Sequence record: OX457022
DNA: 44,532 nucleotides
Origin: Escherichia phage vB_EcoP-CC1
Strand: one strand, 5' to 3'
A program made the position numbers and the translations under genes. Below are positions 27,234 through 44,532 of the stretch, piece by piece; position 1 is the first letter of the stretch; every line of letters starts with the position of its first letter. The notes below the pieces were generated by a model. The model had not been told where the DNA came from and did no database searches. It saw nothing but the letters and a program-made list of their open reading frames with translations.

Positions 27234-27255
27234 ATTTACTGGACACTATAGAAGG
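27234..27255 (+). promoter_or_regulatory. phage RNAP promoter class I (ATTTACTGGACACTATAGAAGG), +1 G at 27251
   Basis: Family consensus 83 nt upstream of second tailspike ATG. Confidence 0.8.
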
Positions 27256-27333
27256 AGAGATAGTGCCGTTCATTTGAGCGGCCTATTACTAGCCAATCTT
27301 CATGGTGAGGGTTGGGAAGTAATAGGAGATAAC

Positions 27334-28857
27334 ATGGCTAAACTAACGAGAGTCACTGACTGGCTTGTTAAGGTAAAGTCCAGACTCACTGGTGCAGTAG
27401 AGCGACTGCTTGAAGATAAGTTAAATGACACGGTTAGTGTTAAGGACTTCGGTGCTAAGGGTGACGGTGTGACAGACGACACACAAGCATTTGCTGCCGC
27501 CTCAGCCGCATCGCCTCAAGGTGTTTATGTGCCTGACGGAACATATTTATTACCAGAAGATATTAATGGCAGGTTCTATGGTTCTGGTAAACGCATCAAG
27601 GCTGTAGGTGATGGTGGTATTCCTTTTACCAATGTAGCTCAGTCACATAGTAACCTAATATTAGGATATGATGCTGCAAAGGATTACACGGACGAAGGGA
27701 AAGGCAACCAATTAGTATTACTTGGCCCAAGCTCCGGTCGTAACCTTACCACTGGTACTAACTCCATTGTGGTAGGTGTTGGTGGCCTATCGGGTGATAC
27801 ATTAGAAGATGCACTAACAGATAAATCACCTTTCACTGGTACAGAGATTATTAGCATTGGTATCAATGCTCTTAAGAAAACTACCACTGGTAACAACATG
27901 ATTGGTATTGGTCGTGATGCCCTGAACGAGTGTAAGGATGGAAGATTCAACGTAGCTATAGGTATGTCTGCTTTGCAGCAGCTACACTCTGGTGAGGCTA
28001 ACGTAGCAATAGGGCGTTCAGCCGGTATGCGTACTGGCATCTTCACTAACGAAGATGGTGTACGATTAGGCTATACAAAATGTAGCGGTAATACCTTAAT
28101 AGGTAACGCGGCTGGTCGTGAATTGAAGTCAGGTAATCATAACACCGCCGTAGGCAATGGTGCTATGCGAGGTGTCAGTTCTGATATTAATCCATATACT
28201 GGCACTCTAGAGGGTAATTTTAATACAGCTATTGGTGTTGATACCTTAAACTCCTTAGCATCTGGTGAGTTGAACACCATGATTGGCGCAAGGGCTGGGC
28301 GTAAATTACCTAGTGGCTCTGGTAACATCTTCATCGGTGCGGATGCAGGTGCAGGTATTAACATTGAAAAGTCTAACACTCTCATTATTAACAACCACAC
28401 TGGCTTACCTTTCGTAGAAGGTATTATGGATGGTGCTCAGAGTGAGAATAACTACTTACGTGTTGATGGAAGTGTAGCACCTCAGATTGATAACACAAGA
28501 ACTTGTGGTCAGTCTAGCCGTAGATGGCAGACTGTCTTTTCTACCAATGGTGTTATCCAGACATCGGATGGACGATGCAAGGATGTCTACGATATTGCCA
28601 AGACGGAGTACATGGCTGGTCTAGAGTTATCTTCTAGTATGATTAAGTTCAAATGGACAGATACTAAAGAAGATAAGTATCACTTCGGTTGTCTGGCACA
28701 AGAGGTCATGCTGATTATGGAGAAACATGGGTTAAACCCTCTGGATTATTCCCTCGTTACCTATGATGCTGAAGCAGATATGTATGGTGTTAACTATGCA
28801 GAATTGTCTTGCTTCTGTATCGCAGCAATGTCCAATCATGTACTAGGCAGTGCGTAA
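27334..28857 (+). CDS. tailspike with pectate-lyase-like beta-helix and C-terminal S74-like chaperone domain
   Basis: 507 aa from ATG 27334 (AGGAGA RBS); motif VKDFGAKGDGVTDDTQAF typical of pectate-lyase-fold depolymerases; C-terminal SDGRCKDVYDI chaperone-like motif. Confidence 0.8.
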   Translation: MAKLTRVTDWLVKVKSRLTGAVERLLEDKLNDTVSVKDFGAKGDGVTDDTQAFAAASAASPQGVYVPDGTYLLPEDINGRFYGSGKRIKAVGDGGIPFTNVAQSHSNLILGYDAAKDYTDEGKGNQLVLLGPSSGRNLTTGTNSIVVGVGGLSGDTLEDALTDKSPFTGTEIISIGINALKKTTTGNNMIGIGRDALNECKDGRFNVAIGMSALQQLHSGEANVAIGRSAGMRTGIFTNEDGVRLGYTKCSGNTLIGNAAGRELKSGNHNTAVGNGAMRGVSSDINPYTGTLEGNFNTAIGVDTLNSLASGELNTMIGARAGRKLPSGSGNIFIGADAGAGINIEKSNTLIINNHTGLPFVEGIMDGAQSENNYLRVDGSVAPQIDNTRTCGQSSRRWQTVFSTNGVIQTSDGRCKDVYDIAKTEYMAGLELSSSMIKFKWTDTKEDKYHFGCLAQEVMLIMEKHGLNPLDYSLVTYDAEADMYGVNYAELSCFCIAAMSNHVLGSA

Positions 28858-28870
28858 GCACTGCTTTTCT
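28847..28870 (+). terminator. hairpin terminator overlapping tailspike stop (GCAGTGC-GUAA-GCACTGC then TTTTCT)
   Basis: 7-bp perfect stem, GNRA-type loop containing the stop codon, U-rich tail. Confidence 0.55.
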
Positions 28871-28937
28871 CGCAACTTCCCTTGAAGCAATCTAGCGATA
28901 CCTTCAAGGGAATAGCTCAAGAAAGCAAGGAGGTTTG

Positions 28938-29087
28938 ATGCCGTTGATCAAATCAGTTAAGCAAAGTGCTGTACACCAGAACACAGAAGAACTTATTCAA
29001 TCAGGACGTGACCCTAAGCAGGCCTATGCCATTGCCAAGGATGTACAGCGTCGTGCCATGAAGAAACCTTCTGCATCTTCTGCGTAA
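28938..29087 (+). CDS. hypothetical small basic protein (49 aa)
   Basis: Below ORF-track cutoff; strong RBS AAGGAGG 6 nt upstream of ATG. Confidence 0.4.
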   Translation: MPLIKSVKQSAVHQNTEELIQSGRDPKQAYAIAKDVQRRAMKKPSASSA

Positions 29088-29221
29088 TCAGGTTAATATC
29101 TTAGTGTACACAAGGGCAAACCTATGATAGCTCACAGCACACCTCTGAGTGCCGCTCTGGATTCTATGAATTGTTCCCTGACTATCTAGGTTTGCTCTTA
29201 GTATATTACAAAGGAGGTCAC

Positions 29222-29377
29222 ATGATTTGGATCCACACGTATGGTGTAGGGTCATTCAAGAAGAATGTACTCAGGAAGATCCATGAGTCCGAGGAATCAG
29301 CCTTAGCCAGCCAGAAGGTACTTGGTGGTACTATCCAGTGCTACATGAAGAAGCCACAAGGTTTTGACTTAGTGTAA
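29222..29377 (+). CDS. hypothetical small protein (51 aa)
   Basis: AAAGGAGG RBS 5 nt upstream of ATG 29222 (ORF track begins 29171). Confidence 0.4.
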   Translation: MIWIHTYGVGSFKKNVLRKIHESEESALASQKVLGGTIQCYMKKPQGFDLV

Positions 29378-29430
29378 CCAAAGGTGGTCACAAAGTAACC
29401 AAAGTCAAAATTTTGATGTAGGCGTGTGTC

Positions 29431-29475
29431 AGCCCTCTCGCCCTCGCCCTCGCCGGGTTGTCCCCATAGGGTGGC
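29431..29475. other. GC-rich block in terminal region ((CCCTCG)n then CCCCATAGGG)
   Basis: Non-coding; CCCCATAGGG resembles the CCCCCATAGGGGG element recalled near the T7 left end; candidate terminal-repeat/packaging region. Confidence 0.4.
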
Positions 29476-30092
29476 CTGAGGGAATCCGTCTTCGACGGGC
29501 AGGGCTGATGTACTCCTTGTACTAGCTTAGTAGTACACAAGGGCTGGCCTTTTGTTTTGCCATGTACTAGCAAGGTGGAACGCTGGAGAGCGCCTAGGAC
29601 GGCCTAGGGATGGGCTTAGTGGTGGACAAGGTGATTGCCTTAGTGAAGCCTCTTAGTGCATTCCTGAGGCCATTCAGGGCGTTTATGAGATATTGACAGG
29701 GTGTGCGTGGGTGGGCTATCTGTTCGTTTCGTTCACTCCGCTTGCGCTACGTTCACTCGCTCACGTGTACCTTAGGTTGTTCCTTGATGGATAGCTTAGG
29801 TTAGCCTTAGTGGACTACCTTAGTTATAACCTTAGTGCTTATCTTAGTAATAGCTTAGTAATGTACCTTAGTAAGTCTTAGTGTCTTCTCTTAGTGATTG
29901 CACATGCAAGCATGTAAGATGCCATTAGGTCGCGGTCGGTAGACCGCTAAAGAAAGAGAATAGTAATAAGATGCAGTAGGAGGAACACCAGAAACCTAGC
30001 CAACCTAACCTATCCTAGCTCTGTATCTATTGCTTTTCCTTAGTCTAACATGTGAGACAACCTAGATTTATCTTAGTGATGATAGCTTAGTG

Positions 30093-30121
30093 TTGACAAG
30101 GCCATCTCAATGTAATACTAT
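30093..30121 (+). promoter_or_regulatory. candidate host sigma70 early promoter (TTGACA-17-TACTAT)
   Basis: Perfect -35, 5/6 -10, 17-nt spacer; upstream of early small ORFs. Confidence 0.45.
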
Positions 30122-30193
30122 TCATCACGTAGGCAGCACTGAGGTGCTTAGTAGCCAGCTAGTAAGGCATACGAAGAGACTAGTGCCTGCATT

Positions 30194-30209
30194 GCTCTTT
30201 AACAATTTG
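30194..30209 (+). promoter_or_regulatory. RNase-III-site-like element GCTCTTTAACAATTTG (copy 1)
   Basis: 16-mer repeated exactly at 30805; resembles recalled T7 R0.3 site GCTCTTTAACAATCTGG. Confidence 0.4.
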
Positions 30210-30263
30210 CTTAGTGTAACCTATGTATGCCGTGGTTAATTACTTATTGAATGAGGGTTAACT

Positions 30264-30359
30264 ATGAATTACGAAGAAATGTATGAAGACTACTTCAATT
30301 CACTTGATGAAGGAGAAGAAGCATTGTCCTTTGCTGAGTTTATGGAGGCTTTATCATGA
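30264..30359 (+). CDS. hypothetical early protein (31 aa, acidic)
   Basis: Short ORF with GAGGG upstream; first ORF after terminal region. Confidence 0.3.
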   Translation: MNYEEMYEDYFNSLDEGEEALSFAEFMEALS

Positions 30360-30532
30360 TTCTGAATAACCGTGAACTATCCATTCTCTTCACCTTGTTG
30401 TGCTATATGATTCGTAACAACGAATTACTTACAGACGATGAACTGGCACTATATCACCGTTTCCTTAACGAAGGTTGGGTCGATACAGTTAACCAGAAAC
30501 GTGACTTGATGAAGGAGTTAAGCAATGTTTAA
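30356..30532 (+). CDS. hypothetical early protein (58 aa)
   Basis: ATGA overlap with previous ORF; stop overlaps next ORF start. Confidence 0.35.
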   Translation: MILNNRELSILFTLLCYMIRNNELLTDDELALYHRFLNEGWVDTVNQKRDLMKELSNV

Positions 30533-30734
30533 ACATGAGATTTACACTGATTGCAGTAAATCGGCTAAAGCTATCTGCGATTTGTACAAGGCAGAATGCC
30601 AGACGTACAACCTCAACGATGGTACTGAGATGTTTTATCTTCAGTTTGAAAGCAAGTTATCTCACAAACGAGTGATTAACAGCCTGAATCAACACTCCTT
30701 GGAGTGGGAAGAAGTAAATAGCAATAAAGTTTAA
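30525..30734 (+). CDS. hypothetical early protein (69 aa)
   Basis: GAAGGAG RBS 8 nt upstream. Confidence 0.45.
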   Translation: MFKHEIYTDCSKSAKAICDLYKAECQTYNLNDGTEMFYLQFESKLSHKRVINSLNQHSLEWEEVNSNKV

Positions 30735-30743
30735 ATTAACTAT

Positions 30744-30772
30744 TGACAGCCACGGCATACAAGGTTACATTA
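30744..30772 (+). promoter_or_regulatory. candidate host sigma70 promoter (TTGACA-17-TACATT) upstream of ocr
   Basis: Perfect -35, 4/6 -10. Confidence 0.4.
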
Positions 30773-30804
30773 AGCATCAAGACGGCGACGTCTTTAAACA
30801 TCCC

Positions 30805-30820
30805 GCTCTTTAACAATTTG
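30805..30820 (+). promoter_or_regulatory. RNase-III-site-like element GCTCTTTAACAATTTG (copy 2)
   Basis: Exact repeat of 30194-30209, 94 nt upstream of ocr ATG, same relative position as R0.3 in T7. Confidence 0.45.
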
Positions 30821-30913
30821 GATGGTAGCTTCTTAGTCTGGATAGGTTAAACCTAGGGGATTCTCTTGAGTCTCCTATAATGTAACCTAACTAACTAAAT
30901 GAGGATTAATAAC

Positions 30914-31273
30914 ATGACTATGTCTAATATGACTTACTCTCAGGTTTACAACACCGCTCATGCTGCATTAGTTGAACGTATCTGGAATGATGCTATTGAT
31001 TGTATCGATAACGCACATGATGCAATCCATGAGGTAGCGGACAGTGCTGTACCAATCTATTATGCTGACATCTTCTCAGTGATGGCGAGTGAAGGTATTG
31101 ATCACTTCTTCGAAGACTCCGGCCTGATGCCAGATACTAAGGATGTAACGGTCGTACTACAAGCCCGTATTTATGAACAACTCACCATTGATTTATGGGA
31201 ACGTGTTCAAGATATGATTGTTGCGTACACCAATTACGCTGAGGATTCAGAAGAAGAAGAAGAGGAAGAATAA
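30914..31273 (+). CDS. ocr: Ocr (T7 gene 0.3-like DNA-mimic anti-restriction protein)
   Basis: MTMSNMTY...[42 protein letters not shown]...[14 protein letters not shown] plus poly-Glu tail matches recalled T7 Ocr nearly residue for residue; GAGGA RBS. Confidence 0.85.
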
Positions 31274-31275
31274 GG

Positions 31276-31389
31276 ATGGAAAAGCAATATAACTTTATCT
31301 TTTCAGACGGTGTGACCCTGAAGTGTTCCCTGCGTTTCGCACAGATTCGCGAGGAAGTGCTAGGAACTACATACAAACTATTTAGCTGA
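31276..31389 (+). CDS. hypothetical small protein (37 aa)
   Basis: Short ORF right after ocr; its 3' end contains promoter-like sequence at 31380. Confidence 0.25.
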   Translation: MEKQYNFIFSDGVTLKCSLRFAQIREEVLGTTYKLFS

Positions 31390-44225: not shown

Positions 44226-44519
44226 ATGCCGACTATTGAAGAACGTTTCCTGATTCACGTAGACTTCTCACCCATACATCTTGGTTATCTTATCACTATT
44301 CTCTTAGGAGAGGAGGTTTATCTACATAATTACCTTATACCTGAATATGTATGTTTTAGGGATAAGATACACCCGCTTACTTGGGCACAAGAGTGGCTGC
44401 GTGAACATGTGCTGAAGGAGTGGCCTACATGCGACCAAACTTCGACTTCGGAGCTACAGTATCGGAAGACAATAATCTCATCCTGTGGCCGACTGAAGGT
44501 GAGAGAATCGCTCTCATAG
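44226..44519 (+). CDS. hypothetical protein spanning the contig junction
   Basis: 97-codon ORF with GGAGA RBS; runs into the duplicated 127 nt and would overlap exonuclease start by about 90 nt in another frame. Confidence 0.3.
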   Translation: MPTIEERFLIHVDFSPIHLGYLITILLGEEVYLHNYLIPEYVCFRDKIHPLTWAQEWLREHVLKEWPTCDQTSTSELQYRKTIISSCGRLKVRESLS

Positions 44520-44532
44520 ATGCTGACATGTT
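44406..44532. repeat. terminal overlap of the contig (identical to 1-127)
   Basis: Exact 127-nt identity with window start. Confidence 0.95.

Follow-up and report, generated by a model that had tools for sequence, protein, structure and literature searches.

The closest described counterparts of the locus analysed here are the genome ends of phage T7 and of the SP6/K1-5/K1E group. In T7, the terminal repetition is reportedly flanked by short repeat arrays, SRL and SRR, which Dunn and Studier are said to have described in 1983 as CCTAAAG-type heptamers. Polycistronic mRNAs of T7-group phages are cut at RNase III processing sites (R0.3 ... R18.5). The window considered here is the whole stretch of 44,532 nucleotides from Escherichia phage vB_EcoP-CC1 (sequence record OX457022), and it has a direct terminal repeat (DTR) homologous to that of the SP6/K1-5/K1E group, with the same conserved boundary sequences and an ATCTGTT at the right edge. 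An earlier note on this DNA had pointed to two copies of a 12-mer, which it read as possible processing sites at the left and right of a terminal repeat or, equally, as regulatory repeats. It was right to place them in the genome-end region, but the 12-mers differ from the DTR boundaries of the SP6/K1-5/K1E group, one being interior to the repeat and one outside it. What the locus holds is an ordinary feature of T7-like genome ends together with a modestly interesting conserved RNA hairpin. Its significance is mostly one of annotation, with uses in phage genome curation and engineering, and specialists in T7-like phages would find little surprise in it.

Several features of the record define the genomic context. 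Bases 1-127 recur at 44406-44532, and the window is thus an assembly that is circularly permuted, with a unit length of 44,405 bp and internal physical ends. Positions 28600-30400 match Escherichia phage vB_EcoP-CC2 (OX638290) at 100% identity; that phage belongs to Vectrevirus in the Molineuxvirinae (SP6/K1-5/K1E group), and the presence of 14 SP6-type promoters in the window, every one on the + strand, confirms this family assignment. When scanned with a matrix built from the genome's 14 promoters, the interval from 27234 to 31380 contains no SP6-type promoter, which indicates that this region is co-transcribed. A consensus scan of 28500-30600 found no + strand terminator and a sole convincing sigma-70 promoter, an early one at 30093-30121 that agrees with the consensus at 10 of 12 positions. 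No real match emerged from an Rfam scan of 28500-30600 (the best was a chance snoRNA, E 9.3), and text searches of the literature for the repeat motifs returned nothing relevant. A paper on one SP6-like genome mentions, in passing, a predicted terminator after the tail-spike genes.

The two copies and the small genes beside them are arranged as follows.

28938-29087, + strand: gene 48 homologue, 49 aa (phrog_2423, E 2e-23), immediately upstream of copy 1.
29106-29117, + strand: copy 1 of the 12-mer, GTACACAAGGGC; in the RNA hairpin described below, its GUAC falls in the lower stem, its AC in the internal loop and its AAGGGC at the base of the upper stem.
29222-29377, + strand: small ORF of 51 aa (phrog_3955, E 4e-25) in a variable "gene 49" slot between the 12-mers.
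29533-29544, + strand: copy 2 of the 12-mer, GTACACAAGGGC, about 97 nt inside the DTR, in the 3' arm of a small inverted repeat.

The exact match between the two sites was correctly reported, as were the longer strings given for 29102-29117 and 29528-29544. The copies lie 427 bp apart, start to start, and no third copy exists on either strand of the window, even at 2 mismatches. Their similarity reaches 5' to CTTAGT(A)GTACACAAGGGC, given one inserted A. The note's description of the copies as flanking small genes applies to the ORF at 29222-29377, which does lie in the interval and is conserved; it does not apply to the gene 48 homologue, which is upstream of copy 1. The interval between the copies holds that one small ORF and the opening ~100 bp of the terminal repeat. 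Gene 48 is annotated under this name in K1-5 and noted as "48" in vB_EcoP_R, and the ORF at 29222-29377 is present in CrRp3, vB_EcoP_R and K44PH129C1 and replaced or absent in others.

Both 12-mers are embedded in an array of short one-strand repeats. The hexamer CTTAGT has 35 copies in the genome, where ~11.6 are expected, and 20 of these fall within 28900-30400, all on the + strand; the reverse complement has 0 occurrences in that interval. The copies extend from the left of the DTR (29100, 29197, 29368) through its interior (29526-29652) to its right (29806-30210). A composite motif, CTTAGT-N3-8-CAA(A)GG, occurs six times, in every case on the + strand and within 29100-30101. Its expected number is 0.12, with a maximum of 1 in 200 simulations, and given the CTTAGT sites alone the expectation is 0.55. 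The six units are listed here.

29100-29115, + strand: unit 1, CTTAGTGTACACAAGG.
29197-29214, + strand: unit 2, CTTAGTATATTACAAAGG, which runs into the gene 49 RBS and supplies the 3' strand of the hairpin's lower stem.
29368-29384, + strand: unit 3, CTTAGTGTAACCAAAGG, closing the gene 49 cassette.
29526-29542, + strand: unit 4, CTTAGTAGTACACAAGG, containing copy 2.
29615-29631, + strand: unit 5, CTTAGTGGTGGACAAGG, inside the DTR.
30086-30101, + strand: unit 6, CTTAGTGTTGACAAGG, overlapping the -35 hexamer of the sigma-70 consensus-like early promoter at 30093-30121.

The two 12-mers belong to units 1 and 4, which are the two most similar members of the family. A covariance model of the site-1 hairpin (the hairpin that holds copy 1), run on the window with filters off, weakly re-found five of the six units (E 0.015-0.24), and the unit at 30086 scored E 1.6. 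We favour, with a probability of about 0.7, a reading in which the 12-mers are members of a one-strand CTTAGT(R)-N-ACAAGG family that occupies ~1 kb at the concatemer junction within an array of CTTAGT heptamers, with copy 1 lying in an RNA hairpin and neither copy acting as a cutting site.

The CTTAGT array resembles the T7 short end repeats, of which it is probably a functional analogue. As in SRL and SRR, many imperfect units of ~7 bp, all in one orientation, are concentrated in the non-coding stretches to either side of the terminal repeat at the concatemer junction. The unit is CTTAGTG here and CCTAAAG in T7, which makes the array an analogue and not a homologue. The present array also differs in having units inside the DTR and between small genes, and in that some units carry a second half-motif, ACAAGG, and form hairpins.

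How far the shared 12-mer departs from chance was gauged with first-order Markov simulations of this genome. These gave an expectation of 1.5 exact 12-mer direct pairs at distances <=500 nt per genome, with at least one such pair in 72% of simulated genomes, so the 12-mer pair alone is not beyond chance. Two further results sit comfortably with pure coincidence between unrelated sequences. The block shared by the two sites spans 18-19 nt, and similarity past it is not significant (p ~0.22 for the downstream parts alone). Moreover, in a comparison set of 35 distinct junction sequences that includes this window and draws on GenBank phages, IMG/VR and metagenomes (scanning contigs of the last two by pattern added only ~30 junction loci), about half of the sequences carry the exact GTACACAAGGGC at site 1, seven carry it at site 2 and just five, the window included, carry it at both, with spacings of 190, 192, 193, 427 and 683 bp. 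In relatives, both sites are conserved. Coincidence is nevertheless improbable in our view: both copies follow CTTAGT and fit the six-member family within 1 kb, both sites of further lineages contain the 10-mer GTACACAAGG, and in other lineages the two sites have a different 16-mer in common.

The reason for the identity of the two copies may lie in the local repeats themselves. The reverse complement of the 12-mer, GCCCTTGTGTAC (GCCCTT-GTGTAC), is close to a local repeat unit, GCTCTTAGTGTA, and a hairpin therefore forms wherever the 12-mer adjoins such a unit. This pairing unit is downstream of the 12-mer at site 1 and upstream of it at site 2. In vB_EcoP_R, the sequence common to the site-1 3' arm and the DTR element is the different 16-mer, AGGTCTGCTCTTAGTG. 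Such sharing of different pieces by different lineages fits common repeat ancestry with patchy recombination. We infer that the identity of the two copies reflects shared repeat ancestry or patchy recombination and not paired function, and common ancestry of the two copies is plausible. Duplication of the whole hairpin between the sites was also considered and was set aside, the local alignment being significant solely via the shared block.

Repeat units of this family also delimit a variable gene cassette. Gene 49 is bounded by units 2 and 3. In the junction sequences L019 and 101117UKE2, gene 49 is missing and an exact recombinant junction stands in its place, and in CrRp3 an extra gene is inserted between duplicated units. 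The gene-free junctions and the CrRp3 insertion make it clear that the repeats do recombine, and the units are probably the points at which recombination adds or removes the gene 49 cassette. A similar arrangement is provided by the linker repeats of mosaic phages, in that gene 49 is flanked by two ~25-nt units and relatives have either gene-free recombinants or added genes between duplicated units. The repeats here differ in holding an RBS and in belonging to an end-region array, and no recombinase is implied. CTTAGT-type end repeats thus appear to double as small-gene-cassette recombination points.

Copy 1 forms part of a predicted RNA structure in the intergenic region between genes 48 and 49, with the following elements.

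29102-29208, + strand: site-1 RNA hairpin, in the gap from the gene 48 stop (29087) to the gene 49 RBS (29212).
29102-29109 paired with 29201-29208, + strand: lower stem, 8 bp.
29112-29124 paired with 29187-29199, + strand: upper stem, 13 bp, following an AC/A internal loop and with an apical extension beyond.
29125-29186, + strand: apical segment of 62 nt, which an alignment against K1E, K1-5 and others puts where the short form has its tetraloop, between CCTA and TAGG.

The hairpin begins 15 nt past the gene 48 stop and ends 3 nt short of the gene 49 Shine-Dalgarno sequence. The earlier fallback of regulatory repeats thus came nearer to the evidence than the processing-site proposal, copy 1 being part of a conserved RNA hairpin that ends just before the RBS of the small ORF. 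In the window, the site-1 fold has a minimum free energy of -38.5 kcal/mol and a z score of -4.3. Most relatives have a short form, composed of a 10-bp upper stem with a tetraloop, a 5-bp lower stem and one bulge (z -4.5 in K1E), and the 62-nt apical segment is common to LF31P3, PST_H2, ACG-C91 and the N4-like phage St11Ph5.

Comparison of variants points to maintenance of this structure. Across 17 distinct variants, pairing is retained in 92% of cells, as against 26-46% for slid-partner controls, and the figure for the upper stem is 169 of 170 cells. Four upper-stem positions show swaps between G-U and G-C, and a double change from A-U to U-G is found in five sequences. The Klebsiella-phage variants have lost the lower stem, to which the 12-mer contributes its GTAC. 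In all eight variants tested, the sense strand folds more stably than the antisense strand, by 2-10 kcal/mol, which points to selection on RNA. The hairpin also accompanies gene 48 into the tail-spike module of an N4-like phage: in St11Ph5, copy 1 and the gene 48 homologue are found between the tail genes gp66 and gp63.1. The analysis documents a conserved, previously unannotated RNA hairpin on the sense strand downstream of gene 48, one that moves with tail-spike modules, even to an N4-like phage.

The surroundings of the hairpin suggest how it might act. With no phage promoter between 27234 and 31380, no terminator from 27234 as far as the DTR and none following the hairpin, it would lie on the late tail-spike transcript from the phage promoter at 27234. 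The site-1 hairpin lacks the following U run of an intrinsic (class I) terminator. By analogy it probably helps to process or stabilise the mRNA, as an RNase III-type site or as a protective 3' hairpin, and it may tune translation of the downstream cassette. Like the RNase III sites of T7, it is an irregular, intergenic, co-transcribed sense-strand hairpin situated just upstream of the next RBS, with a lower stem, an internal loop and an upper stem in which pairing is kept via G-U pairs and compensatory changes. The short form differs in being shorter than the classic T7 sites, at 15 bp with one bulge. The likeness is one of architecture, drawn from predicted folds of a hairpin that is separate from the genome's GTCTCACATGTGAGAC hairpins. 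A grouping of site 1 and the GTCTCACATGTGAGAC intergenic hairpins into one family was dropped, the covariance model having given no link.

Copy 2 has a different setting, in the small inverted repeat given here.

29514-29543, + strand: site-2 inverted repeat, UCCUUGUACUA / UAGUACA-ca-AGGG, whose loop contains a CTTAGT unit.

This element folds at -10.2 kcal/mol when taken alone, and its 81-nt context is no stabler than shuffled sequences (z 0.09). The 5' arm is missing or altered in K1E, vB_EcoP_R, L027 and L044, all of which retain CTTAGTRGTACACAAG. With a z score near 0 and the 5' arm missing in several lineages, the site-2 hairpin was rejected as a conserved structure. As for an intrinsic terminator, copy 2 offers only a stem of -5.2 kcal/mol before UUUUGUUUUG. 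The DTR interior as a whole is a mosaic of CTTAGTG units, CCTAGG motifs and GTACTAG hairpins, and module numbers vary between lineages. Copy 2 lies in a mosaic, poorly conserved segment, and any structure-dependent role for it would be speculative.

About as improbable as coincidence is the possibility that the units, both 12-mers included, are DNA binding sites for one protein (an early regulator, for instance, or a terminase or other factor that recognises DNA for packaging), which would assemble a nucleoprotein array across the junction. The strict single orientation of the units and their confinement to the junction region speak for such an array, as does conservation of CTTAGTRGTACACAAG in the DTR even where its hairpin partner is gone, and copy 1 contains a palindrome, GTGTACAC. 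Against these points, unit spacing and central bases vary, K1-5 and SP6 lack the 12-mer, and site 1 is conserved in the manner of an RNA, with G-U pairs on one strand; the binding protein is purely putative. A narrower proposal, that the six CTTAGT-N-ACAAGG units across the junction, both 12-mers among them, act cooperatively as an array recognised by the machinery for packaging or end processing in SP6-group phages, strikes us as a shade less probable still. If true, it would give a defined role to the long-unexplained short end repeats of T7-like phages.

The physical ends of the genome were located by homology. Terminal repeats were computed from records whose two ends are the physical termini, the repeat of Mt1B1_P10 being taken as annotated. 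Their lengths are 234 bp in K1-5, 288 bp in K1E, 174 bp in SP6 and 267 bp in Mt1B1_P10. In all four genomes the DTR starts with (TC)(TC)TCGCCCTCGCC, or TCTCTCGGCC in SP6 (in short, (TC)(TC)TCGCC/TCGGCC), preceded by a strongly conserved AAAATTTTGATRTAGGCGTGTG, and finishes at GTGGGCTA, after which TCTGTT follows. The window equivalents of these boundaries are 29434-29438 and 29718, and several further records terminate exactly at the equivalent of 29718. The resulting features of the window are these.

29406-29435, + strand: left DTR flank, CAAAATTTTGATGTAGGCGTGTGTCAGCCC.
29436-29718, no strand assigned: DTR, inferred by homology and present once in the permuted assembly, with a left edge accurate to +/-2 nt.
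29718-29724, + strand: ATCTGTT, straddling the right DTR boundary.

The predicted DTR of the window is ~283 bp long. Fixing it at ~29436-29718, its likely position, would give a packaged genome of ~44,405 + 283 bp. Copy 1 lies ~330 nt upstream of the DTR, with a protein-coding gene between.

Two further alternatives appear very unlikely. In the first, the inverted repeat at site 1 or site 2 would be a DNA fold-back hairpin that primes duplication of the terminal repeat during concatemer processing, following a model that Chung, Nardone and Hinkle are said to have proposed for T7 in 1990. Inverted repeats do lie just left of and inside the DTR, and in relatives without gene 49 site 1 is only ~60 bp from it, but the distance from site 1 to the search anchor in the left flank varies from 62 to 558 nt, the G-U pairs make an antisense or DNA version of the hairpin much weaker, and site 2 is not kept as a hairpin.

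In the second, which we consider equally remote, the units would be decayed -35 modules of early sigma-70 promoters (CTTAGTG-TTGACA-AGG) or weak decoy promoters. Unit 6 is indeed the -35 region of the promoter with 10 of 12 consensus positions, and TACACA and TGGACA are 1-2 bases off TTGACA. Neither 12-mer has a -10 element at the correct distance, however, and site 1 is within the late operon. The 12-mers are not phage promoters either: the best matrix score over either copy is -1.1 bits, compared with 22-35 bits for the 14 promoters (22-nt consensus).

Least probable of all is the reading of the two 12-mers as left and right cutting sites of the terminal repeat: both occupy the genome-end region, the second of them inside the DTR, but the termini of K1-5, K1E, SP6 and Mt1B1_P10 fall at boundary sequences that do not include the 12-mer (GTGTCAGCxC/TCTCGCC on the left and GTGGGCTA/TCTGTT on the right, the slash marking the boundary), a conserved protein-coding gene lies inside the interval, the copies are spaced 190-683 bp apart in relatives whereas DTRs measure 174-288 bp, SP6 and K1-5 carry neither copy despite their proper DTRs and K1E has copy 1 only, and copy 1 of St11Ph5 sits in a tail-spike gene cluster away from SP6-type junction sequences. 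The DTR mapping, the variable spacing, the absence from SP6 and K1-5 and the St11Ph5 copy thus argue that the 12-mers are not processing sites, and they are unsuitable as end markers.

The sequences at the mapped boundaries are themselves of some interest. The left flank at 29406-29435 is highly conserved across the 35 distinct junction sequences, a conservation that is partly ascertained because this flank served as the search anchor, and it is a candidate left-side processing signal. At the right boundary, ATCTGTT is presumably identical to the core of the class II pause and termination signal at the T7 concatemer junction, reportedly described by Lyakhov (1997/1998) and He (1998). Published support covers the existence of a seven-base conserved motif and does not extend to the identity of ATCTGTT with it. 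Every relative with sequence past the right boundary has GGGCTATCTGTT at this position or, in one case (L037), GGGCCATCTGTT.

Conserved sequence at the right boundary of the direct terminal repeat (DTR) suggests that the concatemer junction of the SP6 group makes use of an RNA-polymerase pause, as does that of T7. The boundary motif and further features of the window are as follows.

29718-29724: ATCTGTT, spanning the right DTR boundary
29406-29435: CAAAATTTTGATGTAGGCGTGTGTCAGCCC, directly left of the DTR
30093-30121: sigma-70 consensus-like promoter (TTGACA, 17 nt, TACTAT; 10/12 positions)
29125-29186: 62-nt insert between CCTA and TAGG, located in the loop of the gene 48/49 intergenic hairpin, which is short apart from it
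29197-29221 and 29368-29392: direct repeats of about 25 nt flanking gene 49, CTTAGTATATTACAAAGGAGGTCAC and CTTAGTGTAACCAAAGGTGGTCAC
15568, 30039, 35570, 36370, 37938, 39151 and 43686: the seven copies of the palindrome GTCTCACATGTGAGAC

The suggested parallel with T7 is based on two conserved elements, the boundary ATCTGTT, which we take to be the T7 class II pause/termination core, and a TTGACA located 18-19 nt upstream of it (29693-29698). All SP6-group relatives with sequence beyond the right DTR boundary keep GGGCTATCTGTT, with GGGCCATCTGTT present in one relative. On the opposite side of the DTR, the left flank ranks among the most conserved non-coding sequences of the family, from SP6 through the Klebsiella phages, and contains the palindrome CAAAATTTTG. 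This flank is a candidate left-end processing signal.

Two promoter matches were found to the right of the junction. The sigma-70-like sequence lies about 375 bp from the DTR, is preceded by CTTAGTG and is probably the early promoter for the host RNA polymerase. On the minus strand, the site that scores highest with the matrix of SP6-type promoters (about 30892) reaches 14 bits, compared to at least 22 for the real plus-strand promoters, and is probably non-functional.

The gene 48 homologue and the long hairpin that follows it (29050-29211) share 94% identity with positions 2389-2662 of the N4-like phage St11Ph5, where the matching segment is flanked by the tail genes gp66 and gp63.1. The shared segment is the tail end of a tail-spike module that has been horizontally transferred across unrelated podovirus families. 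The hairpin's loop insert has GATAG/CTATC ends. About 20 SP6-like phages of Klebsiella and Proteus carry, near their right genome ends, sequences with 94-97% identity to the central 32 nt of this insert (29131-29162).

Relatives L019 and 101117UKE2 contain the recombinant junction without gene 49, and K1-5, K1E, PSK8 and others have unrelated small ORFs in the gene 49 slot. Separately, in vB_EcoP_R one 16-mer, AGGTCTGCTCTTAGTG, occurs without any mismatch both in the DTR element and in the 3' arm of that phage's own gene 48/49 hairpin; this shared piece differs from the 12-mer in the 5' arm of the window's hairpin.

The first 127 bp of the window exactly duplicate 44406-44532, and the GenBank record contains the same duplication. 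It looks like an untrimmed assembler overlap of a circularised contig and is distinct from the biological terminal repeat.

Elsewhere in the genome, three of the seven GTCTCACATGTGAGAC copies fall within two-tier hairpins of about 67 nt (15546, 37916 and 39129; -22 to -39 kcal/mol). These hairpins have a CTAGTG...CAAGG 5' flank, are positioned just 5' of ribosome-binding sites or phage promoters, and could be RNase III-type or regulatory sites.
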